From contig DASQAT010000046.1 of assembly GCA_035635555.1 (NCBI GenBank), forward strand, positions 320,075-384,074: a DNA stretch of 64,000 bases, read 5' to 3'. This stretch comes from Candidatus Dormiibacterota bacterium (GTDB lineage Bacteria > Acidobacteriota > Polarisedimenticolia > Gp22-AA2). The position numbers were made by a program, and so were the translations under genes. Under the pieces are notes generated by a model that was given only the letters and a program-made list of their open reading frames with translations, did not search any database and was not told the DNA's origin. Shown one piece after another: positions 14,846-48,635 of this stretch (the stretch's first letter is position 1; each line of letters opens with the position of its first letter).

Positions 14846-15115
14846 CTACCTCAAGTTACGAAGGTTCTTGCCTGGCTTGAAGCGGATCGTCTTGCCGGGG
14901 GGAATGCGCACTTCCGTGCCCGTCCGGGGATTGCGGCCGATCCCTTTCTTGCGCGGTTTGACCTGGAAGACGCCGAACCCGCGCAGCTCGATCCGCTCCC
15001 CCCGGCGCATCGACTCCTTCATGGCGTCCAGGATCGCCTCGACGGCGACCACCGCCTTGACGCGCGTGATATCGGCGCTTTTGGCTACATTATTAATGAT
15101 ATCGGTCTTGATCAT
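14846..15115 (-). CDS. IHF/HU-family DNA-binding protein (integration host factor-like)
   Basis: MIKTDIINNVA...RIELRGFGVFQVKPRKKGIGRNPRTGTEVRIPPGKTIRFKPGK. Internal ATG at 15115 with GGGGG RBS. The upstream track extension is unlikely. Confidence 0.8.
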   Translation of the reverse strand: MIKTDIINNVAKSADITRVKAVVAVEAILDAMKESMRRGERIELRGFGVFQVKPRKKGIGRNPRTGTEVRIPPGKTIRFKPGKNLRNLR

Positions 15116-15213
15116 CCCCCGGCCTCCCGTTCGACGCAGAGCAAACGAGCGTAAATTACTGAAAGTATAGGCAGGTACGACAGAGGCTGTCAAGACGTGC
15201 CGATTGCCCGTCT

Positions 15214-16587
15214 GTGCTATATTCCATTCGGCTTCAATCACTTGCGCTCGATTTCTCGAGGTCTTCCGCGGTGCCGGCACCTGTCGTCGCCATCGTGGGC
15301 GCGCCGAATGTCGGCAAGTCCACTCTTTTCAACCGCATGCTCGGCCGGCGGAAGGCGATCGTCTCTGACATCCCTGGCGTGACCCGCGATCGCCTGATGG
15401 CGACCTGCGACCTGTTCGGTGTGGCCGTGACCTTGGTGGACACGGGGGGTGTGGTCCATGGCAAGACCGACGACCTCACTCGACGAGTGCGCCTGGAGGC
15501 GCTCAAGGCTGTCGACGAGGCGGATGTGATCCTCCTGGTCATGGATGGCCGCGCGGGAGTCACCGGGCTCGATCTCGAGGTGGCGCGCCTCCTGCGCTCT
15601 TCAGGGAAGCCGATCGTGCCCGTCGCCAACAAGATAGACGCAGGCTCCCTGGAGGGGCTCGAAGCGGACGCCTACCGCCTTGGACTCGGAGAGGTCGTCC
15701 CGATCTCGGCCGAGCAGGGTCGAGGTCTGGACCAGCTCATCGATCGGCTGGTCGGAGCGCTCCCGGGCCCGCGCGGCCCCGCCGAGCAGTCCGGTGTGCC
15801 GGTGGCCATCGTGGGTCGGCCGAACGTCGGCAAGTCCTCTCTGTTCAACAGGCTGGTGAAGGAGTCCCGCGTTCTCGTGGCCCCGATCCCGGGAACCACG
15901 CGCGATCCGATCGACGCTCTGTTCCAGCACGCCGGGGTGACCTACAGGGTCATCGACACCGCGGGGATCAGGCGGCGCTCCGGCCGCTCCGAAGAAATCG
16001 AGTGGGTCAGCGTATTGAAGGCAAGACAGGCGCTGCAGGAGGCCGCGATCGCCGTGGTCCTGGTCGATGCCTCGTCGGAAATCGACCACCAGGACAAGAC
16101 CATCCTCGGGCTGGTGGCCCACGACCGGATTCCGGCCGTCGTGGCGGCGAACAAGATCGACCTGGTGCCTTTGAGCGGCGGGGCGCGGACGAAGCGGCTG
16201 GAGGCGATTCGCGATACGCTCGGATTTGCATCGTACATGCCGATCGTGCCGCTGTCGGCGCTCCAGGGAGAAGGGGTCGATCGGCTCCTCGACACGCTTG
16301 AGACCCTGCGACAGGAAGGTCTCAGACGCTTCACCACCGCCGAGCTGAATCGCGCGCTCCAGGAGATCGTCGCGGAGAAGCAGCCGCCCGCGGATGGCGG
16401 GCGGGAAGTGCGCTTCTATTACATCACGCAGGGGGGAGGGCCGCCGCCAAGGTTCATCGTGTTCGGGAATGGCCGGAAGGTTCCCGAGCCGTACCGGCGG
16501 TTCATGACCGGTCGCCTGCGCTCGCGTCTGGGGCTCTCCGTCTCTCCCCTGGTCGTGAGCTTCCGGCGCAGCAGGCCCGTTCGTTGA
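15214..16587 (+). CDS. der: Ribosome-associated GTPase Der (EngA), two GTPase domains plus KH-like C-terminus
   Basis: Two P-loops (VVAIVGAPNVGKST and VAIVGRPNVGKSS) and DTAG motifs. The real start is probably GTG 15271 (VPAPVVAIVG). Confidence 0.85.
   Translation: MLYSIRLQSLALDFSRSSAVPAPVVAIVGAPNVGKSTLFNRMLGRRKAIVSDIPGVTRDRLMATCDLFGVAVTLVDTGGVVHGKTDDLTRRVRLEALKAVDEADVILLVMDGRAGVTGLDLEVARLLRSSGKPIVPVANKIDAGSLEGLEADAYRLGLGEVVPISAEQGRGLDQLIDRLVGALPGPRGPAEQSGVPVAIVGRPNVGKSSLFNRLVKESRVLVAPIPGTTRDPIDALFQHAGVTYRVIDTAGIRRRSGRSEEIEWVSVLKARQALQEAAIAVVLVDASSEIDHQDKTILGLVAHDRIPAVVAANKIDLVPLSGGARTKRLEAIRDTLGFASYMPIVPLSALQGEGVDRLLDTLETLRQEGLRRFTTAELNRALQEIVAEKQPPADGGREVRFYYITQGGGPPPRFIVFGNGRKVPEPYRRFMTGRLRSRLGLSVSPLVVSFRRSRPVR
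15215..15223 (+). promoter_or_regulatory. Extended -10 element TGtgcTATATT upstream of der
   Basis: TG-n-TATATT at 15215-15223. It lies inside the track ORF, implying a downstream der start (GTG 15271). Confidence 0.3.
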
Positions 16588-16632
16588 CTCCCCCCGGAGC
16601 GGGTGTTATATTCCCGGACCTGCGGAGAGCGA

Positions 16633-17904
16633 ATGGTTCTCTTTAACTATTCGACCCGCGAGCTGACCGCCAAGATCGTCTACTACGGTCCGGGGCTCTG
16701 CGGCAAGACCACGAACCTGCAGTTCACCTACGAGTCGCTCCCTGACAACGTCAAGAAGGGGAAGATGCTGTCCCTCGCGACGAAGACGGACCGGACTCTG
16801 TTCTTCGATTTCCTGCCGCTCGAGCTGGGCCGGATCCGGGGCATGAAGACGCGGGTCCAGCTCTACACCGTGCCGGGACAGGTGTTCTACAACTCGACGC
16901 GCAAGCTGGTCCTGAAGGGGGCCGACGGCGTGGTGTTCGTGGCCGATTCACAGTCCAAGATGCTGGAGGCCAACGTCGAGAGCTACAAGAACCTCGAGGA
17001 CAATCTGCGCGAGATGGGCCTGCGCATCGAGGAGACCCCGCTGGTCATGCAGTTCAACAAGCGTGACCTGCCCCACCTCGCGTCGATCGAAGAGATGAAC
17101 GCCCAGATCAACCGTCACAACGCCCCCTTCTACGAGGCCGTGGCGACCACCGGGATCGGGGTCGAGGACACCCTCAAGGCGATCACCAAGCTGGTTCTCA
17201 ACAACCTGGCGTCAAAGTACAAGCTCGACGGCACGGGGGCGCCGGACGCGACGACGCCGGTCGAGGCGGCGGGCGAGGCTCCGCCGCGGGCGATCGCGCA
17301 GGGACCGAGGCCCATAGCACCTCCTCCCGCCCGGCCTGTACCGGCGGCGAGGCCGGCCGCTCCCTCAGCGCCTCAGCCCGAGGAGGACCTCGCCCTGGAA
17401 GCCCTGGAGATCGAGGAGCCCGCCGAAGCCGCCGTCAGCGTCCCGCCCTCCCGCGCCGCGCGCCCGGCGCCACCCTCCTCGCGCGCCGCCGCGCCGCCGA
17501 TGGACGACGTCATCGATCTGGTGGACGAGATCGACCTGCCCGAAATCGAGGAGCGGGAGGACGGATCCGTCGACCTGGGGGAGGATCTCCTCCAGGAGCT
17601 GGAGGCCGAGCCGGTGCCTGCCGTTGCCCGTGCCTCCGGGGGAGCGGGGGCCCCGTCCCGCCCGCTGGCGTCGGCGCCGCTGCGGGCCGTTGCCCCGCGC
17701 GTCGAGTTCGAGGATCCGATCGACCTCGACGAGCCGATCGATCTCGACGGAAACTGGGAGACTCCCGCGCCGGCCGCCTCCAGCATCGATATCGGCTCGA
17801 TCGGACCCGGCCAGGAGAAGACCATCGAGCTGCCGGTCACCGCGAGCGTCGACGGCAGGCCGGTCCGTCTGAGCCTGAAGGTCACCGTCCGACTGTCCCG
17901 CTGA
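16633..17904 (+). CDS. mglA: MglA-type Ras-like small GTPase with ~240-aa Pro/Ala/acidic C-terminal extension
   Basis: The N-terminal ~195 aa are near-collinear with MglA: KIVYYGPGLCGKTTNLQ, TDRTLFFDFLP (intrinsic Arg), LYTVPGQVFY (catalytic Gln), QFNKRDL. The C-terminal half is low-complexity with repeated acidic (D/E)xIDL motifs. ATG 16633 (MVLFNY) is chosen. Confidence 0.75.
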   Translation: MVLFNYSTRELTAKIVYYGPGLCGKTTNLQFTYESLPDNVKKGKMLSLATKTDRTLFFDFLPLELGRIRGMKTRVQLYTVPGQVFYNSTRKLVLKGADGVVFVADSQSKMLEANVESYKNLEDNLREMGLRIEETPLVMQFNKRDLPHLASIEEMNAQINRHNAPFYEAVATTGIGVEDTLKAITKLVLNNLASKYKLDGTGAPDATTPVEAAGEAPPRAIAQGPRPIAPPPARPVPAARPAAPSAPQPEEDLALEALEIEEPAEAAVSVPPSRAARPAPPSSRAAAPPMDDVIDLVDEIDLPEIEEREDGSVDLGEDLLQELEAEPVPAVARASGGAGAPSRPLASAPLRAVAPRVEFEDPIDLDEPIDLDGNWETPAPAASSIDIGSIGPGQEKTIELPVTASVDGRPVRLSLKVTVRLSR

Positions 17905-17914
17905 CGCACTCTCG

Positions 17915-18721
17915 ATGGAACCGGTGGACGCACCGACCCCCGCGACGCTCGGCCATCCCGTGCGCGCCCTGCGAAGCGCCCCGGAACGCCTCGAAATCGC
18001 CCTGATCCTGGGGCTCGTCCTGCTTCTCAACCTCCTGCCGGGACGCCCGCTCCAGATTGCAAGCCTCCGCTGGGGAATCCTGGTGACCCAGATTTTCTTC
18101 ATCGCCGCGCCCGTGCTCCTCGGGATCCGCTGGTTCTACCTGGACCGCCGCGCCGTCCTTCCGATCGTCTGGCCGGGTGGACGGGTGCTCGCGGGGGCCG
18201 TTCTCGGTGCCGTGGGGCTGAACCACGTGATCAACTACGCGGTCCTGTGGCAGGACCGCCTCTTTCCCCTGCCGGAGGGTCTGCGGGCCCTGTTCGAATC
18301 CCTCGGGTCGTTCGACGGCCCTCTGGATTTCCTCCTCCTGCTCCTGCTGCTTGGCGTGGTCCCGGGCGTCTGCGAGGAGATCCTGTTCCGGGGGTTCGTG
18401 CAGGCTGGTCTCCGGCAGACATTCGAGAGCGGCAGGACGGCGATCGTGGTGGGGGCGCTCGTCTTTGCGGGATTCCATCTCAATCCGTGGCGGTTCGATG
18501 TCCTTCTGATCATCGGTCTGTACCTGGGCTATCTCGTGCAGCGCACCGGCTCCCTCGTTCCGTCGATGGTGGCGCATGCCTTGATCAACATCCTTTCGGT
18601 CTGCCTCGGGGCGGTCGGCGACGAGGCCCAGAACGTCTTCGTCCAATCCTCGTGGTCCCACCTGCTGGCGTGCCTCTGCCTCGCCGCCGCCGCGCTGTTG
18701 CTGCGCCGCGCGTCCGCGTGA
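17915..18721 (+). CDS. CPBP-family (CAAX/Abi) intramembrane metalloprotease
   Basis: Motifs EEILFRG, FAGFH and HALINI in a polytopic membrane protein. Confidence 0.75.
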   Translation: MEPVDAPTPATLGHPVRALRSAPERLEIALILGLVLLLNLLPGRPLQIASLRWGILVTQIFFIAAPVLLGIRWFYLDRRAVLPIVWPGGRVLAGAVLGAVGLNHVINYAVLWQDRLFPLPEGLRALFESLGSFDGPLDFLLLLLLLGVVPGVCEEILFRGFVQAGLRQTFESGRTAIVVGALVFAGFHLNPWRFDVLLIIGLYLGYLVQRTGSLVPSMVAHALINILSVCLGAVGDEAQNVFVQSSWSHLLACLCLAAAALLLRRASA

Positions 18722-18788: not shown

Positions 18789-19916
18789 ATGACACGTTCC
18801 CGCGCCGCGGCCCTTGGCTGCGCAGCATGGCTCCTGGCGCTGGCCGGCCCGGCGTCCTCCCAGACGCCGCTGTTCAGCGTCTACCCGTCGTACGGCGCCA
18901 AGTTCGACATCGGAACCGAGAAGTTCTCGCTGGTCACCCAGATGGTCATCTACAACATCAGCGGCCAGACGTTCACCGACGTCACCTTCAAGCAGACGTA
19001 TCCCGACGGGGTGTCGGTCAAGGAGACGTACCAGCGCGACGTGGGAACCGAGGCGACGGGAGAGCAGTCCTCCGCGCGCAAGGTGGAGAACAACGTCTTC
19101 TTCGCGTCGATGCCGACGTTCAAGAACCGGATGTACGCCGTCATCCCGAACGAGCTCGTGCTGGCGCGCCGCCTCAACGAGATCACCTTCCCCGGCATCG
19201 AGATTTCCTACACCGATCCGAGCGGACAGAAGCAGACCGCCAAGATGCAGGACAACACCTACGATCTGTTCATCTATTCCAACGTGGTCGGCGGCCTCGA
19301 GCGCTTCCTGCACAAATACAACAACATGACCTTCGACTTCGGCAAGGCGGTGCCCAACCGCAAGGAATGGGAGTTCGCTCCGATCGCGGCGAGCGCGCAG
19401 GGGCGCTTCCCGACCGGCATCATCGGCACATCCCCGGGGGAGAATCAGTACAGCGGCTATTTCCGCCTGCGCAGCGGTCCGGCGGGTGACAACATTCAAA
19501 TCGTGGTCGCCTACAAGTCGGTCCAGAAACACGAGCGCGTCAAGGACCAGGAGGAGCTCCTGAAGCGCCTGCGCGAGTACCTGCGCTGGTGCGGAGAATT
19601 CGAGTTCCAGAAGGACAGCCTCAAGGTCACGCAGGGGGAGTGGAAGAAATACGACGGCACATGGTCCGTCGAGGGACGCTGGCTCGACACGGTCAAGAGC
19701 CGCCTGGGCGAAGGCCCTTTCAGGGGGAAGGTCTTCTGGGGCGGGCGGGAGGACGTCGAGTACTACGTCCTGGCGCTGGCGCACGGCCGCGCCCTCGGAA
19801 CGGACAGCGTCAACCCGAATCCGGAGAAGGAAGCGGCCCTCGTCGGGGAGATCGACAAGCTGCTCGACACGTTCAAGTCGTCGATCGTACCCCTTGCGTC
19901 CGACAAACGGCGCTAG
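18789..19916 (+). CDS. Secreted hypothetical protein (signal peptide, no recognised domain)
   Basis: N-terminal signal peptide MTRSRAAALGCAAWLLALAGPASSQ. Long non-repetitive ORF with genome-typical codon usage. Confidence 0.6.
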   Translation: MTRSRAAALGCAAWLLALAGPASSQTPLFSVYPSYGAKFDIGTEKFSLVTQMVIYNISGQTFTDVTFKQTYPDGVSVKETYQRDVGTEATGEQSSARKVENNVFFASMPTFKNRMYAVIPNELVLARRLNEITFPGIEISYTDPSGQKQTAKMQDNTYDLFIYSNVVGGLERFLHKYNNMTFDFGKAVPNRKEWEFAPIAASAQGRFPTGIIGTSPGENQYSGYFRLRSGPAGDNIQIVVAYKSVQKHERVKDQEELLKRLREYLRWCGEFEFQKDSLKVTQGEWKKYDGTWSVEGRWLDTVKSRLGEGPFRGKVFWGGREDVEYYVLALAHGRALGTDSVNPNPEKEAALVGEIDKLLDTFKSSIVPLASDKRR

Positions 19917-25392: not shown

Positions 25393-27819
25393 CTAGTGCT
25401 GCAGCACCTCGAAATCCGCTTCGCTCGGCTGCGAGGCGTTGCCCGCCAGGTCCACGGCGACGACCTTGAGGTGATGCTTACCCAAGGGGAGGCTCGGTGG
25501 ATCGAGGACCTTCGAGATTCCGCGATCGGGATCGAATTCCGACTCGAGCCTTCGCCCGTCGAGCTCGAAGGTCACGCCGTCGTAATTGAGTCCTTTCCCC
25601 TGGTCCTCCACGCGCGCGGAGATCGACGGGCGACGCTTGGTCGAGCGGGAGCCCGGAGCGGGAACGACCTCCAGGATCTCGGGAGGGGATGCGTCCTGGA
25701 GGAGGGCAAACCGACCGTAGCGCCGGAAATGGAGCGACAGGCGCGTGCCCCCCTCCTCCAGATCGCCCCCCTCGTAGGACCAGCGCCGGTGGAACGGATC
25801 CCAGCGGTAGATTCCGAGCGTCTCGGCAGCGACGGCATCCGGGGACAGCTCGAACGCCAGGACGCCCCGCTCATCGAGGGCCTCCCCCTCAGGAAGGATC
25901 TCGATCGCGTCGGAAATCGACGGCAGCCTGTCCGTTCCCGGAGTCCTCTCGGTGCGCAGAGCGAGCGGTCCGGGAAAGAAGCGCGCCTTCTCCGGAAGGT
26001 GCAGGGAGAAGCCAGGCCCTCGATAGTCGACCGGCCGGCCAGGCTCCACCCAGCGCACGTCGAGCGCCAGGCTGGCCACCGGTGTCGGGGAGGAATCGGC
26101 GACGATGAAGAAGGGGGCGAGACCGGCGGCACGGGTATAAGCCAGCCCGGTGCCGCAGAAGAGGCCGTCACGATACGTGAGCGTTTCCAGGGGACTATGG
26201 TCCAGTCCGGACGCGAGCCGCAGCGGCGGAACCGCGGGGCCTTCGAGCGACGCCAGCACATCGAGGAACGCGGGCCAGGCGTCGACGTCGACGGGGAGAC
26301 TCTCCGCGGGTGGCACTGTCGCAGTGTCCCGCGACAGAAGGCGCCATGGGCCGGGGACGCCGTTTCGCGTCTCTCTCAGGCGGACCGCGGAAACGGCGCC
26401 TCGATCGAGGACGGGGGGAAGCGTGCAAACCCCGTCGTCCATCCGGCACGTCAGCGCACTGAAGGCACGCTTCCTGTCGTCCCAGAATTCAGCCTGCACG
26501 TCCCGGGACGGAGCGGAGCAGGCCGACGGGTCGGCGCCGTGACCGGCGGGGTCGCCGGACGCCTCGGCGGGGGAAAGACGGAAGCGCACCCCCACGGAGC
26601 CCCCGTCGCGGCCGTCCCAATCGATAGCCTCCACAGCCTTCGGCCGTCCAACCTGGATGCACACGCCTGCGCGCGATCGGTTCGAGGCGGCGTCCTCGAC
26701 GGTGATCTCCATCCGGTGGAACCCAGGTGGCAGATCGATGGCGCCCGGGTAGACACCTTCGGCTGGTGCCGGGGCGTCGAGAGGACCTGTGCCGAGATCG
26801 TTGCCCGGCAGGTGATTCAGGCGATATCCGAAGGCGGCGGGCCCCAGCCTGCTGGAGCGGTGATCGAAGATCAGGCCCGCCTGGGCATACTGATCGAACC
26901 GAAAAGAATGGAGCGCCAGGCGGTAACGGACGCCGCCGTCGATCGTCACCTCGACGCCGCCTACGCCGGCGCGCCCGGTGGCGCCGGCCGGGTCGAAGGC
27001 GCTCAAGACGGCAAGGAAGGGTCCGCTCACCCTGATCGGGTTGGACGACGTCAGGGTGCCGGGGAGACCGGGCCTCAGCGGATAGACCACCTCGCGAGCA
27101 TCTCCCTCGACGAACGTCGAGGCGGACGCAGCGGTCACGGTCAGCGCCTCGAGCACCGGTGGACGGCTGTCGGAGGGGCGGGGTAGCCCGGCCAGGAACG
27201 GATCGAGAGGAGCGTCTCCGCCGTCGCGCACCTCGAAATGCAGGTGGGGGAGACCCACACCCGATTCCCCGGAGTAGGCGATCACCTGGCCGCGCGTTAC
27301 GCGGAGCGGGCGCTCGAGGTAGATATCTCCCGGGTAGCGGGTCCCCGCTTGCGCCTGCCGTTGTGAAACGAGTCTTTCGAGCCCGAGCACCTTGTCCTCG
27401 TACCGTTCGAGATGACCATAGACGGTGACGCGCCCGCCAGGATGGCGCAGATACAGGGCCCGCCCGTATCCCCTCCATTCCACCTTGAGCCGGAACACTT
27501 CTCCGGCCGCCGCGGCCAGGACCTTGAGGCCGGTGCCGCCCCCCGTCGAGATGTCGATCCCCGCGTGCAGATGGTCGTACCTGTACTCGCCAAAGGACGA
27601 CAGGACGGCGCCGGGGCGCTCCATCGGCCAGCGCAGGACCGGGATGGCGGAGCGGCCGGAGCGTTTCCCCGGCCGGCCGGTCCGGGTCGCCGCCGGCCCC
27701 TTCGGGGCGTCGTCGCCGGCGGCGGTGAAGGCGACCCCGCATAGAAGGGTCGTGAACGCAATAGAGAGGCGCAGGATCGGCCTGGCAGTCCGGCGGGGAG
27801 GTCGCGAAGATCGCCGCAT
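25393..27819 (-). CDS. Large exported M23-family (LytM-like) metallopeptidase-domain protein
   Basis: HAGIDIS (HxxxD) and LPHLHFEV (HxH) motifs. Signal peptide from the internal start MRRSSRPPRRTARPILRLSIAFTTLLCGVAFTAAG (27819). The track N-terminal extension would overlap the divergent gene. Confidence 0.7.
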   Translation of the reverse strand: MRRSSRPPRRTARPILRLSIAFTTLLCGVAFTAAGDDAPKGPAATRTGRPGKRSGRSAIPVLRWPMERPGAVLSSFGEYRYDHLHAGIDISTGGGTGLKVLAAAAGEVFRLKVEWRGYGRALYLRHPGGRVTVYGHLERYEDKVLGLERLVSQRQAQAGTRYPGDIYLERPLRVTRGQVIAYSGESGVGLPHLHFEVRDGGDAPLDPFLAGLPRPSDSRPPVLEALTVTAASASTFVEGDAREVVYPLRPGLPGTLTSSNPIRVSGPFLAVLSAFDPAGATGRAGVGGVEVTIDGGVRYRLALHSFRFDQYAQAGLIFDHRSSRLGPAAFGYRLNHLPGNDLGTGPLDAPAPAEGVYPGAIDLPPGFHRMEITVEDAASNRSRAGVCIQVGRPKAVEAIDWDGRDGGSVGVRFRLSPAEASGDPAGHGADPSACSAPSRDVQAEFWDDRKRAFSALTCRMDDGVCTLPPVLDRGAVSAVRLRETRNGVPGPWRLLSRDTATVPPAESLPVDVDAWPAFLDVLASLEGPAVPPLRLASGLDHSPLETLTYRDGLFCGTGLAYTRAAGLAPFFIVADSSPTPVASLALDVRWVEPGRPVDYRGPGFSLHLPEKARFFPGPLALRTERTPGTDRLPSISDAIEILPEGEALDERGVLAFELSPDAVAAETLGIYRWDPFHRRWSYEGGDLEEGGTRLSLHFRRYGRFALLQDASPPEILEVVPAPGSRSTKRRPSISARVEDQGKGLNYDGVTFELDGRRLESEFDPDRGISKVLDPPSLPLGKHHLKVVAVDLAGNASQPSEADFEVLQH

Positions 27820-27869
27820 GGAAACCGCATTGTAGCGAGAAAAGGTCCGGCCGCCTCTCACGCAAATGT

Positions 27870-27898
27870 TTGACATCATCTTTTGCCATCCATTATCA
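27870..27898 (+). promoter_or_regulatory. Candidate sigma70 promoter (TTGACA-17-TTATCA) for the cNMP/FHA gene in an AT-rich divergent intergenic region
   Basis: Hexamers at 27870-27875 and 27893-27898. Confidence 0.45.
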
Positions 27899-27946
27899 TC
27901 GCCACCGTCCCGCCCGTAAGTCCATGGCGGACAAAAAATAAGCCCG

Positions 27947-28837
27947 ATGGCAGGCGATCCCTTCAAAGAGTTTACGGTCAAGCGCAGGAAAGGCGAGACG
28001 ATCTATGTCGAGGGGGACCTCGGCAGCGAGATGTACGTCGTCCAGTCGGGCGCAGTGCGCATCTTCAGGAGTACGGGCGGGGTGAAGCAGGAGCTGGCGA
28101 TCATGGAGAAGGGAGACTTCTTCGGAGAGATCGCCGTCCTGGAGGGTCTGCCCAGGACCGCGTCAGCCGAGGCGCTCGACGAGTGCGAGATCATCGAGAT
28201 CAACAGCACCACCTTCGACAAGATGATCCGCGCGAACATCGAGATCGCGGTGCGCATGCTCCGCAAGCTGAGCAACCGGCTGCAGGAGGCCAACCGGAAG
28301 ATCGAGATCCTGTCCCGCGCCCCCGCTCCGGGGAAGCCCACTGCGGGGGCACGCATCGCCGCCGTGGACATCGACCAGCCGGCCGAGGCGCCGCCACCGG
28401 CCGCGACGGCGGCGCCGTCTTCGGGTGTCTCCGCCGCCCCGAAGCCGATCGGGGAGGTGGAGGTGCCGGAGGGGGCATTCGCCCTGCTCGTCCTGGAGGG
28501 CGGCTCACGTCACTTCCCGATCACCACCGACACTTCGCTCATAGGACGGTACGACCCCGTCACCGGCACGCGGCCGGAGGTCGACCTCACACAGGTCGAT
28601 ATCAACCGCTCCGTGTCCCGCCGCCACGCCCGGATCGTCCTGGCGGAGGGGGCCTTCCTCCTTTCGGAGGAGGTCGGCGCTTTGAACGGGACGTTCGTCA
28701 ATGGCCAGCGCCTCTCGTCCGGGGCGCCCTCTCCCATCGTGAGCGGGGACAAGGTCGGCCTGGGGATGGTCACGCTTGTCTTCAAGACGGCGGCCAAGGC
28801 CGCCGGACGCAAGCCGGCGGCCGCCGGCCGTTCCTGA
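27947..28837 (+). CDS. Cyclic-nucleotide-binding domain protein with C-terminal FHA domain
   Basis: N-terminal cNMP-binding fold (GDFFGEIAVLEGLPRTASAEAL). Ala/Pro linker. C-terminal FHA (IGRYDP...SRRHARI...NGTFVNGQRL...GDKVGLG). Confidence 0.7.
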   Translation: MAGDPFKEFTVKRRKGETIYVEGDLGSEMYVVQSGAVRIFRSTGGVKQELAIMEKGDFFGEIAVLEGLPRTASAEALDECEIIEINSTTFDKMIRANIEIAVRMLRKLSNRLQEANRKIEILSRAPAPGKPTAGARIAAVDIDQPAEAPPPAATAAPSSGVSAAPKPIGEVEVPEGAFALLVLEGGSRHFPITTDTSLIGRYDPVTGTRPEVDLTQVDINRSVSRRHARIVLAEGAFLLSEEVGALNGTFVNGQRLSSGAPSPIVSGDKVGLGMVTLVFKTAAKAAGRKPAAAGRS

Positions 28838-37074: not shown

Positions 37075-37137
37075 ACACCGCGGACCGTGCGGCGGGTGCT
37101 TCCGGCGCGTGCCGCGACGGTGGGATGGGACGCAACC

Positions 37138-37470
37138 ATGACGAAGGCCGAGCTTGTGGAAGAGGTGGCCCGGGTCTCGGAGCTGACCAAGAAGCACTCC
37201 GAGGTCATCGTCAACACTGTTTTCGACTCGATCATCGACGCCCTGCGGAAGGACGAGAAGATCGAGCTGAGGGGCTTCGGCAGCTTCCGTATCCGACAGC
37301 GTCGATCACGACAAGGCCGAAACCCCAAGACAGGCGACAAGGTCGACGTCCCGGCCAAGCGGATCCCGTACTTCAAGCCGGGCAAGGAACTGAAGGAATT
37401 GATCAACAATTCGGCGCAGTCCTCCGAGCCGGCGGCTTCCTCCGTCACCTCGACCGGCGTGGAGCCCTGA
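37138..37470 (+). CDS. ihfB: Integration host factor beta subunit-like
   Basis: MTKAELVEEVA...RIELRGFGSF..RQGRNPKTGDKV..P.FKPGKELK closely parallels IhfB. Conserved position downstream of rpsA. Confidence 0.8.
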   Translation: MTKAELVEEVARVSELTKKHSEVIVNTVFDSIIDALRKDEKIELRGFGSFRIRQRRSRQGRNPKTGDKVDVPAKRIPYFKPGKELKELINNSAQSSEPAASSVTSTGVEP

Positions 37471-41886: not shown

Positions 41887-44607
41887 ATGCGAACCTTGAA
41901 GTTCGACACTATCTGGCGCTACGTGTTTCTCGAGGTGATCTCGCCCACCCTCCTCGGGCTTTGCGTCTACGTCCTGGTCTTTGTGATGAACGCCCTCTTC
42001 GAGTTGGCCGAGTTGGCCATCAAGAAGGACCTGTCCGCGCGGTCGGTTGTGACCATCCTTTTTTATTACCTGCCCAGGGTTCTCGAGATGACTATTCCGA
42101 TGGCGATTCTCCTGGGTGTGCTGGTCGGGATCGGCCGCCTGTCCACCGACAGCGAAGTAGTGGCGTTGAGGGCAAGCGGGGTAAGCTACTGGAAAATCCT
42201 CTACCCCGTCCTCACACTGGGGATTGTGGGATGGGTCGTATCCAGTGTTCTCATCCTGGGAGTCGAGCCCGGTGCCAATTACAAGAGGCGCCAAGTCTAC
42301 AACCGCCTGATGTACTCCGCCGACATGCGCCGGGAGATCAAGCCTCGGGTGTTCTTCGAGGATGTCCCCGGGATGCTCCTTTACGCCGACGAGGTTCACC
42401 AGGGCGGGGATTTTCTCGAGAAGGTCTTCATCTACCAGAGCGAGGAGGGGGGCAAGGAGCTTGTCACGGTCGCCCGCAGGGCTCAGATCGAATACGACCG
42501 CCACAGTGGGGTGGCGGAATTCTATCTGGAGTCAGGGGTCACTCATAGCACGACACCCAACGAACCCGAGAGCTATCAGCTCAGCAGGTTCGAAAAGCAG
42601 ATGATCGTGAAGGAGCCCGACGAGTCGTTCAAGCTCCGGAGCAGTCTGCTCAATCGTCCTCTTCCCAAGAACTACCACGAACAGACTCTGGCCGACCTGG
42701 GGCACTCGATCATCAGGGCTGGTGCTATCGAGCACGCCGACACCAGGAATCGGGTAGTCGGCAATATCCTGGCCATCATGCACGAACGATTCGCCCTGCC
42801 GGTCGCCTGCCTGGTGTTCGCCATCCTGGGAGTGCCGCTGGGAATCATGAACAGGCGAGGAGGAAAGGCCTCCGGCTTCAGCCTCAGCATCGGCATCTCC
42901 ATCGTCTATTGGATTCTCTATATCGCCGGGCAGAACCTGGTCAGTGAGGGACGCCTGTCTCCTTATCTGGGTCTCTGGGTCGGGAACGCGTCCCTCGGTG
43001 TGCTGGGCATCATCCTGCTCATTCTGCGGGAGCGCTCCGAGGGGTTGCAGTTGTCTCTCCTGGTTCCCGCGAGGTTACAGAAAACCCTGACGGCTTTGCG
43101 GCGCCGGCGTGATCGGGAAATGGAGTCGAGGCATGACGAAATCGGCGCAACGGTTCAACAGCCTGGCGCCCGGCGCGCGCGCAAGTCCACACGTCTTTCC
43201 CGCGGCGGGCACGAGCGGATTCGTGCGGGGCGTTCGGGACAGTCAGGGCCGGAGGATGCGCGAACGCCATTGCGAGCCGTCGTATCGGGTGAGCGCCAGG
43301 AGGGACTCGAGTCCACCTCTCCGGTGGGGATCGACGAAATGGTCGAGGAAGAGGACGCTTCGAGCCGCTGGCTGTCGCGACGGACTCTCCTGGTTCTGGG
43401 CGGTGGCAGCGCCGCGCTGGGCCTCCTCGTGTCGGCGTCTCACATCCCCTCGCTTCCCTTCTTGCTGGTCGGCCTGATCCTTCTGGCACTCTTTCTCGTA
43501 TTTCGAACGACCGTGGATCGGTACATCCTGGCCCGCTTCGGAGCCATCTTCGTCGGTTCGGCAGCAACCCTGTACACCCTCTTCGGCGTGTACGAGCTGG
43601 TCAGTCTCCTGGATGATCTCGTGGAGCACAATCTCCCGTTTTTCATGGCGTTCACCTACCTGAAATATCGATCCCCATGGATCGTGACGCAGGTCCTGCC
43701 CATATCCTGTCTCGTGGCGACCTTCTTGACCATCGGTATCATGTCCCGCTTCAACGAGGTGATCGCACTCAAGGCGAGCGGAACGAGCATCTACCGGATT
43801 GCGGCCCCGGTCGTCGTGGTCACCGTCGCGATCAGCGCCATCGCATACATGAATCAGGATTATCTCGAGCCGTACGCCAACCAGCGAGCGGCCCAGCTGA
43901 AAGACCAAATCCGTGGTCGCAGCCCGCGCAGCTACGAACCGGGAGAGCGCCGGTGGGTTTTCGGCGCGAGCGGCCGCCTGTTCAACTTCCGGAACTATGT
44001 CCCATCCCCCGTCCCTGTCCTGACCACGCCAGGGAGCGGCGAATTCCAGGGATTCTCGGCCTACCATCTCGATCCCGAATCATTCGACATCGACGAACGG
44101 ATCTATGCGCGCTCCGCCACGTTCGTTGATGGCCGATGGGTTCTGAAGGATGGCTGGATCCGGGCGTTCCCCGGAGGGCAGGAGTCGTTCGAGACCTTCG
44201 CGGAGAAGTCATTCGATTTTCCGGAGGGTCCCAGCTATTTCGTCAAGGAATGGAAGACCCCGGCGCAGATGAACTTCACCGAGCTGCAGCGTTTCGTGAC
44301 CGACCTCAAGCGACGGGGTTACGACGTACAGGAGTTGACGGTCGATCTTTACGACAAGACGGCGCTCCCAATCGTCTCCTTGACGATGGTCATACTTGGA
44401 ATCCCGTTCTGCTTCAAGATGGGCAAGCGTGGGTCGCTGTACGGCATCGGGATAGCGGTGTGCCTGGTGGCGGTCTTCCTCATCGTCTTTTCCACCACGA
44501 ACGCCCTTGGCGGGATCGGTCTGATGCCCCCTTTTCTCGCCGCCTGGGCACCCAACGTGCTGTTTGCGGGATCGGGGGTGTATCTGCTCCTCCGGACCGG
44601 AACCTGA
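41887..44607 (+). CDS. Fused LptF/LptG-family (YjgP/YjgQ) LPS export permease, two permease modules in one 906-aa protein
   Basis: Two repeats of the YjgP/YjgQ pattern (RYVFLEV...VVALRASGVSYWKI and RYILARF...VIALKASGTSIYRI) are separated by an Arg-rich ~130-aa linker in a continuous ORF. Confidence 0.7.
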   Translation: MRTLKFDTIWRYVFLEVISPTLLGLCVYVLVFVMNALFELAELAIKKDLSARSVVTILFYYLPRVLEMTIPMAILLGVLVGIGRLSTDSEVVALRASGVSYWKILYPVLTLGIVGWVVSSVLILGVEPGANYKRRQVYNRLMYSADMRREIKPRVFFEDVPGMLLYADEVHQGGDFLEKVFIYQSEEGGKELVTVARRAQIEYDRHSGVAEFYLESGVTHSTTPNEPESYQLSRFEKQMIVKEPDESFKLRSSLLNRPLPKNYHEQTLADLGHSIIRAGAIEHADTRNRVVGNILAIMHERFALPVACLVFAILGVPLGIMNRRGGKASGFSLSIGISIVYWILYIAGQNLVSEGRLSPYLGLWVGNASLGVLGIILLILRERSEGLQLSLLVPARLQKTLTALRRRRDREMESRHDEIGATVQQPGARRARKSTRLSRGGHERIRAGRSGQSGPEDARTPLRAVVSGERQEGLESTSPVGIDEMVEEEDASSRWLSRRTLLVLGGGSAALGLLVSASHIPSLPFLLVGLILLALFLVFRTTVDRYILARFGAIFVGSAATLYTLFGVYELVSLLDDLVEHNLPFFMAFTYLKYRSPWIVTQVLPISCLVATFLTIGIMSRFNEVIALKASGTSIYRIAAPVVVVTVAISAIAYMNQDYLEPYANQRAAQLKDQIRGRSPRSYEPGERRWVFGASGRLFNFRNYVPSPVPVLTTPGSGEFQGFSAYHLDPESFDIDERIYARSATFVDGRWVLKDGWIRAFPGGQESFETFAEKSFDFPEGPSYFVKEWKTPAQMNFTELQRFVTDLKRRGYDVQELTVDLYDKTALPIVSLTMVILGIPFCFKMGKRGSLYGIGIAVCLVAVFLIVFSTTNALGGIGLMPPFLAAWAPNVLFAGSGVYLLLRTGT

Positions 44608-44641: not shown

Positions 44642-44670
44642 CTTCAAGGCTTGAAGAGCGCCTTTTCCGC
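44642..44670. terminator. Palindrome CTTCAAGgCTTGAAG plus CCTTTTCC between convergent lptFG and HEAT-repeat genes (bidirectional terminator-like)
   Basis: 7-bp arms overlapping the HEAT gene stop, followed by a short T-run. Confidence 0.25.
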
Positions 44671-45573
44671 CTCGTAGCGGACTGCTTGGGCGCCATCGGC
44701 GTGAGCAATCGCCCGGAGATCCCCCTCCACTTCGTGCCGGTTCGGCCACGCGGCGGCAGCCGCGACCGCCTGGACACGCACCGATTCGTCCCGATCGTTG
44801 TGCGCCCGCCCGAGTACGGCCAGAAGAGCGGCGCGTGCGTCGTCGAGGACTTCATCACCCGTTCCGCGCTCCGACCCGAAGATCTGTCCCAGCAGCCTCA
44901 AGGCCTGGCTCCTCAGCGTTGGGGATGGCGAGCCGAGGAGGACGATCATCTTCGGGAGGAGGGATGAATCGGCGACCCGCAGTCGCTCGAGCTCGGACAG
45001 CGACGCCTCCAGAAGAAACGGATTGGGGCTATCGAGACGAGCCCTCAACTCGGCGACCTGACTCGCCGCATCGAGGCAGCCGATCCGAGCCAGCCGACGG
45101 ATCGCCTCCAGGACGATCTCGGGGCCTTCCGCCGGAAGTGTCATCCTCCCCTGTCTTCCTTTGAAGAGGGTGAAGAGGTCTTTGAATTTTTCGATGTCCT
45201 TCTTGCGGACGTTTGTCTTGTAGGGGACCAGAAAGAGGATTTCCTTCTGTCCGTCTGGAAAAACGATCACATCGTCCGAGGGCCCGCGCGTGAAGTTGAA
45301 GTCCCGGAAGGCGATCCTGAGATGGGGACCCGGGGGAGTGCCTTTCAACGCCTCGACGACATCGACTTCCGCGTATTTCAGACTCCCGTTGTGCACGGCG
45401 ACGAGCGTGACGAGATCGGCGCGCGCGACCAGTTGGAACAGGTTCAGGATCTCCGGTTTGGGTCCGAGCTGCGCGAGCGCCGAAGAGCAGCTCAAGGACA
45501 ACAACGAGACGATGATGGCAAATGACCTTCCGTTGACCCGGGAGGTAAGGAGTGTCCCGAAGCGCCTGTTCAA
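44644..45573 (-). CDS. Exported HEAT/ARM-like repeat protein (hypothetical)
   Basis: Signal peptide. The C-terminal half has repetitive helical LLxxLxD..VR..A pattern. Confidence 0.45.
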   Translation of the reverse strand: MNRRFGTLLTSRVNGRSFAIIVSLLSLSCSSALAQLGPKPEILNLFQLVARADLVTLVAVHNGSLKYAEVDVVEALKGTPPGPHLRIAFRDFNFTRGPSDDVIVFPDGQKEILFLVPYKTNVRKKDIEKFKDLFTLFKGRQGRMTLPAEGPEIVLEAIRRLARIGCLDAASQVAELRARLDSPNPFLLEASLSELERLRVADSSLLPKMIVLLGSPSPTLRSQALRLLGQIFGSERGTGDEVLDDARAALLAVLGRAHNDRDESVRVQAVAAAAAWPNRHEVEGDLRAIAHADGAQAVRYEAEKALFKP

Positions 45574-48500
45574 GGTTTGTCCGAGGGCGCCGATTCGGGC
45601 TTCATTCTCTCGCTCGATCCCCCCGCGAGGGATTTCAATTTCTGGCGGATCTCGGCCTGGTTGGGTCTGAGCCTCAGGGACGTCTGGAACGCCGCCACCG
45701 CCTTATCCTTCTGGCCGAGACGAAGGTAAGCTTCCCCGAGAAAGGTCTGCATGTCCGCATCCTCCGGAAGGAGGCGCATCCCCTCGATCAGCAGGTCCAC
45801 GGCCTCCGCCGCACGGTCCCGACCCATGAGGGAGCGCGCCAGATTGAGGTAGGCGGGGCTGTACCGCGTGTCGATCGCCAGGGCTCGCCTCATCTCGGAC
45901 TCCCCTTCCTCAACCCTTCCCTGCTTCAGGAGCGCGAGGCCGAGGTTGTGGTGGACGTCGGCATAGTCAGGATCGAGCTTTACCGCCTTGCGATAGGAGG
46001 CGATTTCATCGGTCAGCCGGCCGAGTCTCCCATAGACCGCGCCCAGGTTGTTGTGTGCCGAGGCATCCGCTGGATCCACGGCCACCGCCTTCTCGAGTTC
46101 GATTCTCGCCCGCTCGAAATGTCCCATCGAGTAGAGCAAGGCGCCGTAGTTCGTGCGCACCTGGACGTTTTCGGGATCCCTCTGCAGCGCATTCCGGAAA
46201 TTCTCTTCGGCCCCCTTCAAATCTCCCTGCTGCTCGAGGATCAGGGCCAGGTTGCTGAACGAGCCGGCAAATTCCGGATCGGCGGAGATCGCCTTTCGGA
46301 ATGAGGCGACCGCATCGTCCACTTTCCCCTGCTCCTTGTAGATGACTCCGATGTTGTTGAGGGCTTCGGAGTATTCCGGATCGACGGCCACGACCTTCAA
46401 GAATTGTTTCAAGGCGTCGTCCTGGCGGCCCAGCTTGTTGTAGAGGATTCCGAGACTGTTGCGGGCGTCCGTGAAATTAGGCTCGTACTCCAAAGCGGTC
46501 TTGAACCGTTTTTCGGCCTCGGGGTACTGCTTTTTCTCCATGGCGATGTTTCCGAGCAGGTTTTCCGCTTCCTTCGAGCGGGGCTGCCGGCTCAAGTACT
46601 CATTGAGGACCTTGGTCGCGGCGTCGTAATCTCTCTTCTTGTAGAGGGCCCGCCCGATGTTGATGCGGGCCATCCCGAGGTCCTCCGACGACTTGATGGC
46701 CTGCTCGAACTCCCCTATCGCCTCGTCGTATTTGCCCTGATTGAGAAGGAGCATGCCGCGATTGTTGTGCGAGTTCGCGGTGTCCTGGCGAAGGTACCCC
46801 AGCGATTCGAGCTTGTCCTTGAGCTCCTGATCCCCTTGCGGGTCGAGCGCCGCGGGGGACCCGGACGAGGCCACGGCGGCGACAGGGGCGGCCGATGTCG
46901 TCTCGTAGGTCGGCAGGTAGCGGATCGGATGGCCTGCGAGAAACGCGGGATCGAAAACATCGATCAAGGGGCGTCCGTCCATATCCTCGGCGACGGGCAG
47001 GCCGAGCACCGCCAGAACGGTGGGAGCGATGTCGAGGACGGAGCCCTCGCTCAACTCGGAGCGTTTCCGGAACGGAGGTCCCGCGAGGATGATGATGCCG
47101 TACTTGCGGTGCCAGTCGGCGGCCTGTCCGTATCCGATCCGTGAGTCGGTCAGGGGACGATTGTCACCGGTTCGAAAGCCGTGGTCGGAGCAGATGATGA
47201 TGGCCGTTTCCGGACCGGCCGCCTGGACCAGACGTCCCACCAGCTCGTCGGCGTGACGATAGTACTCGTCGACGGCGCGTCCGAACCGCTGCGACTCCTC
47301 CTTCGTGACCCCAGGCAGGAGCGGAGGGACGTAGCGCATGAACAGATGCGCCACCGTATCTGTTCCTTCCAGGTAGACCGCCTGGAATTCGGGGTGATAG
47401 CGCTCCCGGAGAGCGAGGCTGACCGCAGTGTAGGTGTCGCCCGCAGCCAGGAGGGTCTTCAGGTCGTCGATCAAACTGTTCTGATCGTCCGAAACGGCGG
47501 CTGGATCCTCGGGCAGGTGCACGTAACGTGAAACTTCCCCCACCCCGATCGACTCGGGGGCCACGGTGAGCGAGGCCACGAGATCCCCCAGCTCGGCAGG
47601 AAAGACCTTGCCTTCTTTCACCGGATCGTGGGCGGCGCGGGCTCCGAACAGCTGGTAGGCCACCCGGTCCGAGACCACGAAGCCGTTCACCTTCTCCGCT
47701 GGAAAGCTGGCCCACCACCCCGCCACCCCTACGCTCAGACCCTGCTCGCTGAGGATGTTCCAGAGGGCCTTTGTTCTCCTGAGACTCGAGGTGACGGGAA
47801 CCTTCTCCCCGTCACGGCCGGTTGTCGCCATGAAGTCGATGATGCCATGGCGGCTCGGAGAGACGCCGGTGGCGATGCTCGTCCAGATGACCGGAGACAG
47901 CATCGGTGTGATCGTGTGCAACCGGCCGCGTACGCCGGCACGCGCCAGTCTGCCCAGGTTAGGCAGGCGGCCGGCTTCGATGAGCGGGTCGACGATATTC
48001 CAGTCGGCGCCGTCGAGACCGATCAGAAGAACCTTCGTTCCGGTCTTCTGTCGGGACGACTGTGCTTCGGCGATCGAGGCGGCGCGGATGCGCACGGAGC
48101 TCACGTCACACGAAAGCAACTCTAGTCCGGCCCCCCGGAACCGCTCCGCCAGAGACTGTCCCAGGGCGGATCGCAGATCCTCGGTCCGCGCCCCCGAGAT
48201 GCCTCCATAGTCCGAGGAACCAATGACCGCACGCAGCCCCTCCCCCACCCATCGGTCGAGGACCCTCGAATAACGTGCCCCAAGCGCTCGATGCACCTCG
48301 AGGATTCGGTCAGGATCCACCCTATATCGGATGGTCCCCGTGGTCGTGACGGCGGTCCCCTCTCGGGTGACCAGCAGACTCCGATCGGTCTCTCCTCCTC
48401 GGAAGGAGAGAGTCACCGGATCGGCGGGGTAGCGCGTGAGACGGAGAAGGCCGGGAGGGGCGAGTCGCCAGCCTGGATCGGAAACGCGCGGACGCAAGAT

Positions 48501-48635
48501 CCCCAGGGGCGAATCCAGCACGGCGATGCCACGGGCGGGGTCGATTCGATTCAGGCCGCAGAGGATCCAGACCGCCACGATCAGGAGACACACCCCCAGA
48601 AGGACCTTGCGCTTCCTGATCGATTCGAGGTTCAT
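45570..48635 (-). CDS. Membrane-anchored multidomain protein: SPFH-like segment + alkaline-phosphatase-superfamily (type I phosphodiesterase/sulfatase-like) domain + C-terminal TPR repeats
   Basis: N-terminal TM helix. SPFH-like RYRVDPDRILEVHRALG...LRAVIGSSDY...LELLSCDVSSVRI. AlkP-core KVLLIGLDGADWN...TPMLSPVIWTSIATG. At least 10 TPR units at the C-terminus. Confidence 0.6.
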   Translation of the reverse strand: MNLESIRKRKVLLGVCLLIVAVWILCGLNRIDPARGIAVLDSPLGILRPRVSDPGWRLAPPGLLRLTRYPADPVTLSFRGGETDRSLLVTREGTAVTTTGTIRYRVDPDRILEVHRALGARYSRVLDRWVGEGLRAVIGSSDYGGISGARTEDLRSALGQSLAERFRGAGLELLSCDVSSVRIRAASIAEAQSSRQKTGTKVLLIGLDGADWNIVDPLIEAGRLPNLGRLARAGVRGRLHTITPMLSPVIWTSIATGVSPSRHGIIDFMATTGRDGEKVPVTSSLRRTKALWNILSEQGLSVGVAGWWASFPAEKVNGFVVSDRVAYQLFGARAAHDPVKEGKVFPAELGDLVASLTVAPESIGVGEVSRYVHLPEDPAAVSDDQNSLIDDLKTLLAAGDTYTAVSLALRERYHPEFQAVYLEGTDTVAHLFMRYVPPLLPGVTKEESQRFGRAVDEYYRHADELVGRLVQAAGPETAIIICSDHGFRTGDNRPLTDSRIGYGQAADWHRKYGIIILAGPPFRKRSELSEGSVLDIAPTVLAVLGLPVAEDMDGRPLIDVFDPAFLAGHPIRYLPTYETTSAAPVAAVASSGSPAALDPQGDQELKDKLESLGYLRQDTANSHNNRGMLLLNQGKYDEAIGEFEQAIKSSEDLGMARINIGRALYKKRDYDAATKVLNEYLSRQPRSKEAENLLGNIAMEKKQYPEAEKRFKTALEYEPNFTDARNSLGILYNKLGRQDDALKQFLKVVAVDPEYSEALNNIGVIYKEQGKVDDAVASFRKAISADPEFAGSFSNLALILEQQGDLKGAEENFRNALQRDPENVQVRTNYGALLYSMGHFERARIELEKAVAVDPADASAHNNLGAVYGRLGRLTDEIASYRKAVKLDPDYADVHHNLGLALLKQGRVEEGESEMRRALAIDTRYSPAYLNLARSLMGRDRAAEAVDLLIEGMRLLPEDADMQTFLGEAYLRLGQKDKAVAAFQTSLRLRPNQAEIRQKLKSLAGGSSERMKPESAPSDKP

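Follow-up and report, generated by a model that had tools for sequence, protein, structure and literature searches.

How does a bacterial polarity GTPase operate when its polypeptide continues for more than two hundred residues past the canonical fold, and when the gene of its usual regulator MglB does not lie beside its own? The question is raised by an mglA gene in a stretch of 64,000 nt from a Candidatus Dormiibacterota bacterium that GTDB places in the Acidobacteriota (contig DASQAT010000046.1, positions 320,075–384,074; the whole 64-kb stretch is called the window here). The original prediction, made from the letters alone, had described an MglA-type GTPase encoded directly after der, with an acidic repeat extension that might act as a built-in, MglB-like regulatory tail. 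Two conclusions are well supported: judged by its conserved residues, the protein is a catalytically intact Group-1 MglA with a predicted hydrolysis-competent switch domain (G21, T26, R54, T55, Q83 and NKxD are all retained), and it belongs to a distinct, widespread MglA subfamily without an adjacent mglB. The design of this subfamily is a switch domain followed by a flexible spacer and a terminal amphipathic β module. The coordinates of all features are collected in Table 1.

GTPase core and C-terminal tail

The open reading frame (ORF) lies on the + strand, ends at 17904 and could begin at 16603 (GTG) or at 16633 (ATG). We take the ATG as the start, with a product of 423 aa, because MVLFNYSTRE opens all homologues. 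In phmmer searches of PDB sequences, residues 3–192 matched the solved MglA of Myxococcus xanthus with E 6.8e-76 and that of Thermus thermophilus with E 4.4e-65; the next-best solved proteins were Rab GTPases at E about 1e-5, and no GTPase family fits the core better than the MglA family to which it had been assigned. The Pfam Ras family is matched with only 29 bits, a weak score that is usual for MglA. The core is 63–68% identical to M. xanthus MglA. The P-loop GPGLCGKTT (residues 19–27), the intrinsic arginine R54 and the catalytic glutamine Q83, all three already noticed in the original prediction, were located in the alignment, where R54 and Q83 stand opposite R53 and Q82 of the M. xanthus protein. 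In the G3 motif, T79 occupies the position where Asp is usual (TxxGQ), and a G3 without this otherwise universal Asp is a hallmark of MglA (PMC4316618). Similarity along the G domain, G21 in the P-loop, the arginine finger together with the Gln, the TxxGQ motif and NKxD place the protein in MglA Group 1, and its catalytic residues are invariant among the 54 long and 28 short MglAs sampled below. It departs from the single-domain format of ~195 aa that is characteristic of the family in having 423 aa with a conserved tail.

This tail comprises 227 aa (residues 197–423) and not the 240 originally given, carries a net charge of −23 and consists to 65% of Pro, Ala, Glu, Asp, Ser and Gly. Among 5.8 billion proteins searched, more than 100 homologues of 380–450 aa span 100% of the query, down to 53% identity. 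Alignments of 26 and of 86 of these homologues show an almost invariant core, variable Pro/Ala linkers and five conserved tail islands: (i) PEEDLALEALE (residues 249–262), (ii) DDVIDLVDEIDL (290–307), (iii) DLGEDLLQELE (312–327), (iv) DPIDLDEPIDL (359–375) and (v) the terminal module IxIGxLxPGQERxIEVPVxAxVDGRxVRLxLRVTVRLSR (385–423). The repeated (D/E)xIDL motifs that had been pointed out earlier proved to be more than a by-product of composition: the tail holds four copies of [DE]x[IL]DL, arranged in two tandem pairs (residues 292/298 and 361/367), a count reached by 0 of 20000 composition-preserving shuffles.

The extension might nevertheless be an artefact, with a frameshift, an overlooked stop codon or chimeric assembly as the cause of a false join between MglA and unrelated sequence; the tail is of low complexity and GC-rich, and long spurious ORFs are common in this genome. 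Against this stand the recurrence of the same one-ORF architecture in the more than 100 independent homologues, which come from JGI, ENA, NCBI and Logan assemblies, the frame-specific conservation of the motifs and of the terminal module, and a GC content at third codon positions (GC3) of 0.88 over the whole mglA ORF, a value typical of coding sequence here. A frameshift, sequencing error or fusion as the source of the extension is thereby ruled out for all practical purposes. The tail is real and, as far as can be read from the alignments, under clear purifying selection in its islands and its hairpin; the acidic repeat extension described initially therefore stood in everything but its length. 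No Pfam family and no PDB sequence matched the tail. A phmmer search with residues 245–423 against 1.84 billion representatives gave 17 hits. Apart from two giant repetitive proteins, all were fragments of this family, and the tail sequence thus has no other protein context.

The most conserved element of the tail is one that the original prediction had overlooked, the terminal β-hairpin. AlphaFold2 (AF2) predicts a short strand at residues 385–390 and hairpin strands at 395–406 and 409–420, the hairpin reaching a predicted local distance difference test score (pLDDT) of 86–91 in two runs based on alignments of 86 and 129 sequences. Eleven hairpin positions (398, 400, 402, 404 and 406 on one strand; 411, 413, 415, 417, 419 and 421 on the other) are 100% hydrophobic in the 86 homologues, in which P401 and G408 are invariant; the opposite face sets the acidic E395 and E399 against the basic R396, R409, R412, K416 and R420. 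Because one face is wholly hydrophobic and the hairpin would be unstable alone, it must pack on itself, on the core or on a partner. The protein ends in ...VTVRLSR, and its tail contains no Cys and no CAAX box. For the linker, both runs predict no secondary structure between residues 196 and 385 (pLDDT 33–55), with the fourth motif at about 65–70. These models are poor overall (predicted template modelling score, pTM, 0.22 and 0.31), and their core is badly modelled, with a template modelling (TM) score of 0.40 and a root-mean-square deviation of about 16 Å to MglA crystal structures, which leaves the hairpin and the linker's disorder as their usable content.

Extended MglAs and mglB

We compared 82 MglA loci, 54 encoding long and 28 encoding short (194–210 aa) proteins. 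Long MglAs of 262–609 aa occur in 52 of the 80 best genome loci, and their carriers are Ca. Polarisedimenticolia, Thermoanaerobaculia, Vicinamibacteria, Holophagae, Acanthopleuribacteraceae, Nitrospirota and one deltaproteobacterial metagenome-assembled genome; within the Holophagae, cultured Geothrix carries an extended MglA of 294 aa. The bacterium of the window itself stands closest to Ca. Polarisedimenticolia within the Acidobacteriota. A neighbour-joining tree of the cores unites 55 long MglAs (the 54 locus sequences and the window protein) and two short ones in a single clade with a bootstrap of 299/300, and the core substitutions F4, A13, Q76, T89 and V93 are common to the long proteins. 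Their linkers show no sequence relationship to one another, and their charge varies between strongly acidic and net basic. Their termini are shared: an alternating-hydrophobic β-strand closes 50 of the 53 complete long MglAs compared with 2 of 840 control linker windows (0.2%), and an hxhPhxh strand stands just before this terminal signature in 33 of the 53 compared with 8 of 840. Since the termini are shared while the linkers are unrelated and run from acidic to basic, the conserved design is the terminal module plus a spacer, and not acidity. In the clade of the window protein, the spacer carries four conserved acidic amphipathic motifs.

The relation to mglB was determined with a hidden Markov model (HMM) built from six mglBA operons found in the genome-collection scan, applied at E<=0.01 to the window and to 84 loci translated in all six frames. 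In the 64-kb window, all frames included, neither this HMM nor Pfam searches of the small ORFs found a Roadblock- or MglB-like ORF, in agreement with the original statement that no mglB precedes the gene; a coupled MglA/MglB module, with mglB within a few genes, is thus not present at this locus. An mglB lies directly upstream of 28 of the 28 short mglA genes, six of them from Acidobacteriota, compared with 0 of the 54 long-MglA loci within +/-10 kb. Long and short MglAs do not occur together in any assembly represented among the 80 best genome loci. Canonical mglBA operons encoding the same C-terminal helix of MglB (Ct-helix) are present in some Acidobacteriota, and a homology search for MglB that was aimed at Polarisedimenticolia returned only MglBs of Thermoanaerobaculia, at 88% identity or more, a result uninformative for Polarisedimenticolia. 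MglB-free operation in the phylum is plausible because the complete genome of Ca. Koribacter versatilis encodes an MglA with G21 and RomR and no MglB (PMC3983030), and functional MglAs without MglB have precedents (PMC3983030, PMC4316618).

Earlier work recorded 59 orphan MglAs and acidobacterial members of Group 1 and did not describe C-terminally extended forms (PMC4316618), and our literature search on extended MglAs in Acidobacteriota found no description. While the GTPase itself is an ordinary MglA, the architecture, the phylogenetic coherence and the exclusion from mglB neighbourhoods are apparently undescribed.

Several further observations concern the diversity of these loci. An extended MglA of about 307 aa is represented in Nitrospirota by at least 120 clusters of 84–100% identity (L038, P0138-P0257), and many of the Nitrospirota proteins carry the JGI label 'signal recognition particle receptor subunit beta'. 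A second tail type combines a Pro/Ala linker of net basic charge with a conserved, helix-like MDVLGELEKLR motif and with a longer terminal region of three strands (…VLVSFQVEDDQHRVMDAVRDLAVDIKDAAxLEKLLLRLNIAL); it occupies the C-terminal ~110 aa in L028, L031, L035, L047, L053, L061, L069, L070, L073, L075 and L076. The long MglA ORFs of L024, L030 and L044 have C termini without the β module that resemble the product of a frameshift or of read-through; the 497-aa ORF of L030 contains SVVEVPVVLDKSLF, a motif of the Holophagae type, in its interior. In Holophagae, Geothrix included, a conserved membrane protein with an FHA domain divergently adjoins the extended mglA, its gene lying about 0.1–1.3 kb upstream on the opposite strand (L025, L029, L036, L041, L054, L057, L059).

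The sole short MglAs inside the extended clade belong to L034 (1400-6000) and L039 (9060-13900). Both loci contain a cassette of a small Roadblock protein, a divergent MglB ending in PDFNQAVEDALSxLFS, MglA, a DnaA-like AAA+ protein with an acidic/Pro-rich tail, and a DUF4388/PATAN-TPR protein. The gene downstream of mglA was considered as a separately encoded version of the tail; its product is the DnaA-like AAA+ protein and has no hairpin, so the tail was not born by fusion with this gene.

Proposed role of the tail

The resemblance of the (D/E)xIDL motifs to the C terminus of MglB, on which the original prediction rested its regulatory proposal, did not survive direct comparison. The acidic Ct-helix of MglB binds with D150-D152, D154 and F157 to a pocket of MglA formed by K181/K185 and L64/I67, and a Glu-rich helix of RomR can replace it (PMC6785124). 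In 25 of the 28 MglBs sampled here, this helix reads PF[AS]EITD[DE]DIDxLF. A 14-residue profile derived from these 25 sequences scored at best −0.8 bits on the tail, and 52% of 5000 shuffled tails scored at least as high; specific homology of the tail motifs to the Ct-helix was rejected on this result. The pocket itself is intact: its equivalents K182, K186, L65 and I68 are invariant in the clade of the window protein, as would fit an acidic-helix ligand. Across the sample, K182 is kept in 28 of 28 and K186 in 26 of 28 short MglAs, compared with 39 and 25 of the 54 long ones, whatever the tail type. A correlation between pocket lysines and tail acidity was considered as support for docking in cis; its sign is the opposite, retention of the basic pocket going with less acidic tails (Spearman +0.39, p 0.004, 54 long MglAs), and the basic-tailed MglAs of Thermoanaerobaculia keep K/K or K/R in the pocket. 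A cryptic Roadblock domain was not found in any long-MglA tail (hmmsearch --max with the MglB HMM, best E 0.13; hhalign, probability 0.2%). A GTPase–Roadblock fusion of the Rag type was rejected on these values and on the lack of any Pfam hit in the tail.

A built-in regulatory tail that tunes nucleotide exchange or the β-screw conformation, and so makes the protein partly autonomous of MglB and RomR, would act in a manner likened to the acidic DEDDDL C-terminal switch of Ran. The invariant pocket is consistent with it, as are the promiscuity of this pocket for acidic helices (the RomR helix replaces that of MglB; PMC6785124), the absence of an adjacent mglB and the four conserved acidic-hydrophobic motifs in a tail of net charge −23, of which the first three have an i/i+3/i+4/i+7 hydrophobic spacing that may be compatible with amphipathic helices. 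The profile that does no better on the real tail than on shuffled ones, the positive correlation of the basic pocket with less acidic tails and the relaxation of the pocket lysines among long MglAs argue in the other direction. AF2 also gives motifs 1–3 neither helix nor confident order, which is weak evidence because the models are poor (core TM 0.40 to MglA). What stands of the MglB-like tail as first proposed is the general acidic amphipathic class of the motifs and the intact pocket; what falls is the likeness to the Ct-helix, and the sign of the lysine–acidity relation speaks against docking in cis. We regard a regulatory tail of this kind as unlikely, and docking of an acidic motif on the protein's own core as possible but unsupported.

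The explanation that we favour, with a probability of roughly 0.45, is that this MglA is uncoupled from MglB and that its tail serves to tether or assemble the switch and to recruit partners. The hairpin would bury its hydrophobic face by self-association or by docking on a landmark or envelope-associated protein, and the GTPase would thereby be anchored or clustered. The long flexible linker would let the GTPase domain search the volume around this anchor, while the acidic motifs may fold upon binding basic surfaces of effectors or regulators, possibly including the protein's own pocket. For hydrolysis, an activator would still be expected to be required, be it some different factor or an MglB from another part of the genome, since the GAP (GTPase-activating protein)-sensitive G21 and R54/Q83 are invariant in 54 of 54 long MglAs. 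Several points weigh against this explanation. The role as a tether is inferred, and the partner, the landmark and the oligomeric state are hypothetical; at pTM 0.22–0.31 and a core TM of 0.40, the AF2 models neither show nor exclude packing of the hairpin or of the motifs. The invariance of K182, K186, L65 and I68 in the clade fits regulation in cis as well. The absence of MglB, like that of RomR and RomX, is established for the 64-kb window and not for the rest of the genome. The context gives no functional clue either, because the window and the related loci hold only housekeeping neighbours.

In another reading, the protein is an ordinary MglA regulated in trans by an MglB (with RomR/RomX) encoded elsewhere, as in Myxococcus, the tail being a lineage-specific addition of minor or unrelated role; SofG, which shares the polarity machinery of its cell, offers a likeness. 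The core is as close to M. xanthus MglA as 63–68% identity, its catalytic and pocket residues are intact, there are Acidobacteriota with canonical mglBA operons whose MglB carries the same Ct-helix, and the window covers only part of the genome. Such a bystander tail is hard to reconcile with the clear purifying selection on islands and hairpin and with the separate clades of long and short MglAs. The lack of any assembly with both types among the 80 best loci points the same way, weakly, and at least one complete acidobacterial genome combines an MglA with G21 with no MglB at all (PMC3983030); regulation in trans of this kind therefore appears doubtful to us. Alternatively, the hairpin might homodimerise and the resulting proximity might stimulate hydrolysis, as in G proteins activated by nucleotide-dependent dimerisation (GAD type), replacing the GAP activity of MglB. 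The fully hydrophobic hairpin face and the conserved charge complementarity on the other face would suit a dimer, and the loss of an adjacent MglB throughout the subfamily while G21, R54 and Q83 stay invariant suggests that hydrolysis still matters. This proposal is purely conjectural. A flexible linker of ~190 aa is a weak means of enforcing a productive G-domain dimer, and MglA already has both catalytic residues, which MglB repositions and which a distal dimeriser would not obviously reposition (PMC4316618, PMC6785124); we judge a self-activating dimer decidedly improbable. It also seems improbable that the extended MglAs work as polarity or localisation switches complete in themselves and no longer in need of MglB, in which a pocket-bound acidic motif and/or clustering through the hairpin would supply the functions of MglB and RomR in cis. 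If this were true, they would be bacterial small GTPases with a built-in C-terminal switch and anchor, distributed across Acidobacteriota and Nitrospirota, and would invite comparison with the way in which eukaryotic Ran and Ras are extended at their C termini.

Genomic context and known switches

Table 1 Features of the extended mglA locus (window coordinates; residues of the MglA protein)
Feature	Residues	Position	Strand	Basis
Extended MglA gene, 423 aa plus stop		16633..17904	+	homology of full-length relatives
MglA GTPase core	1–196	16633..17220	+	phmmer against PDB, Pfam Ras
P-loop GPGLCGKT, G21 kept	G19–T26	16687..16710	+	invariant in 54 long and 28 short MglAs
Switch I TDRTLFFDF, intrinsic arginine finger R54 and T55	52–60	16786..16812	+	
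G3/switch II TVPGQVFY, catalytic Gln Q83	79–86	16867..16890	+	
G4 motif NKRD	142–145	17056..17067	+	
Alpha-5 lysines	K182, K186	17176..17190	+	invariant in 26- and 86-sequence alignments
Disordered Pro/Ala/acidic linker (predicted)	197–384	17221..17784	+	AF2, composition
Tail motif 1, PEEDLALEALEIEE	249–262	17377..17418	+	conserved island
Tail motif 2, MDDVIDLVDEIDLPEIEE, two [DE]xIDL copies	290–307	17500..17553	+	conserved island
Tail motif 3, SVDLGEDLLQELEAEP	312–327	17566..17613	+	conserved island
Tail motif 4, FEDPIDLDEPIDLDGNW, two [DE]xIDL copies	359–375	17707..17757	+	conserved island
C-terminal amphipathic β module	385–423	17785..17901	+	AF2, conservation, terminus survey
Sigma-70-like promoter TTGACT-17-TATATT, TG extended -10		16584..16612	+	der-mglA gap
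Shine-Dalgarno GGAG, 6 nt before ATG		16623..16626	+	invariant in relatives' alignment
CPBP/Rce1-like intramembrane protease gene		17915..18721	+	Pfam PF02517, 1.5e-22
Conserved 375-aa protein gene, signal-peptide-like N terminus		18789..19916	+	no Pfam or NCBIfam match

The der gene, whose product has two MMR_HSR1 domains and a KH-like domain, ends at 16587 and hence 45 nt before the mglA ATG, exactly as stated at the outset. The promoter in the gap matches 10 of 12 consensus positions (4 such sites in the region compared with 0.4 expected), and its -35 hexamer overlaps the der stop codon. The -35 hexamer, the TG/-10 element and GGAG are invariant in the close relatives L001, L004 and L005, while the flanking bases vary. 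A block of HU, der, long mglA, CPBP protease and the gene of the 375-aa protein is kept in the closest relatives and is confined to the Polarisedimenticolia-like clade (L001-L008). The adjacency of der is therefore lineage-specific synteny and no evidence of a functional link; a coupling to der was rejected on this restricted distribution and on the conserved promoter that mglA has of its own.

Downstream, 10 nt separate the mglA stop from the start of the CPBP gene, which is probably co-transcribed with mglA; a functional link to MglA is putative, and the synteny holds in L001-L005 only. In NCBIfam its product, an Rce1-like protein of the type II CAAX protease family, comes closest to the C-terminal half of 'ABC permease/CPBP protease', with 153 bits, a score under the cutoff of that entry. 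The succession of a Ras-like GTPase and an Rce1-family gene recalls eukaryotic Ras processing. CAAX-type processing by this protease was rejected, the tail having neither Cys nor CAAX box. The 375-aa protein follows the CPBP gene directly in all close relatives at 67–78% identity, and its link to MglA is likewise putative.

Pfam annotation, which covered essentially all genes of the window, showed only housekeeping functions, such as comEC, an M50 peptidase, HU, der, glnA/glnE, scpAB, rpsA, lptFG, dnaE and leuS. Among the window proteins, Pfam revealed none encoded by genes for RomR, Frz, type IV pili, Glt or bactofilins. Clustering of the neighbours of long-MglA loci, which was swamped by spurious high-GC ORFs, recognised no neighbour conserved across classes.

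Other genes in the window gave the following observations. The HU ORF at 14846-15280 (-), 144 aa with a GTG start, is probably listed with an over-extended start; the start would lie near 15115, because the Pfam match begins at residue 56 and relatives have 89 aa. A strong sigma-70-like site, TTGACA-18-TATACT (11/12), lies just upstream of HU at 15164-15193 (-), and a second HU gene is found at 37087-37470. A 906-aa ORF at 41887-44607 (+) with two LptF_LptG permease matches is apparently a fused LptF-LptG. In a 1021-aa protein encoded at 45573-48635 (-), one domain of the SPFH/Band 7 type and one of the type I phosphodiesterase type are combined with a long TPR array; a HEAT-repeat protein (44647-45573) adjoins it. 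A protein with cNMP-binding and FHA domains (27947-28837, +) lies beside a large M23 peptidase (25393-27981, -), an arrangement that is syntenic in L001 and L004.

Comparison with the MglAs of M. xanthus and T. thermophilus (PDB 6H17, 5YMX, 6IZW, 3T12) shows the same G domain from end to end, with G21, the arginine finger, the Gln, the G3 Thr and NKxD, and the same alpha-5 lysines and β2-β3 hydrophobics that form the pocket of the MglB Ct-helix. The differences are a length of 423 compared with about 195 aa, the terminal hairpin, the lack of an upstream mglB, the position in a separate clade marked by F4, A13, Q76, T89 and V93, and the absence of motility or polarity genes nearby. SofG, an orphan MglA paralogue of M. 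xanthus that shuttles on a landmark of the bactofilin BacP (PMC4085708, PMC4316618), is likewise an MglA-family GTPase encoded away from mglB, and it relies for its function on binding to such a cellular landmark; no bactofilin was found among the window proteins scanned, and the core studied here is much closer to MglA proper. The MglA of Bdellovibrio bacteriovorus works with neither an adjacent nor a genomic MglB and is predicted to be GTP-locked by S21 (PMC3983030). It has canonical length, whereas the window protein has the long tail and shares G21 with 54 of 54 long MglAs. The MglB Ct-helix and the Glu-rich helix of RomR belong to the same acidic amphipathic class as tail motifs 1–3; the tail motifs differ in standing in cis, in being four in number, in lying in a disordered linker and in having no specific sequence similarity to these helices. 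As in Rag/Gtr GTPases, a C-terminal extension follows the GTPase and the usual partner of the family is a Roadblock protein; unlike Rag/Gtr, neither the tail of the window protein nor those of other long MglAs gave a Roadblock signal.

Ran, Ras/Rho and FtsZ have in common a globular GTPase, a flexible and poorly conserved linker and a short conserved end element, which docks back on the core (Ran) or anchors the protein and recruits partners (the hypervariable region of Ras, the C-terminal constant region of FtsZ). We propose a functional parallel between the tail described here and the hypervariable region plus anchor of Ras/Rho or the linker plus C-terminal peptide of FtsZ. This would be an analogy and not homology, since the end of the tail is a predicted β-hairpin and not a CAAX box, a DEDDDL sequence or a short helix.

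MglA is the paradigm of bacterial spatial switches of the Ras-like kind, and present models are built on the trio formed by MglA, MglB and RomR in Myxococcus. The present comparison points to a large, coherent subfamily that is never encoded beside MglB, with hundreds of sequence clusters from Acidobacteriota and Nitrospirota, groups that rank with the most abundant bacteria of soils and sediments. The window protein may turn out to be another orphan MglA with a lineage-specific appendage. If, otherwise, the tail localises or regulates the switch, small GTPases would have gained spatial control by C-terminal extensions outside eukaryotes, and the Geothrix isolates with their 294-aa version would provide a tractable system.

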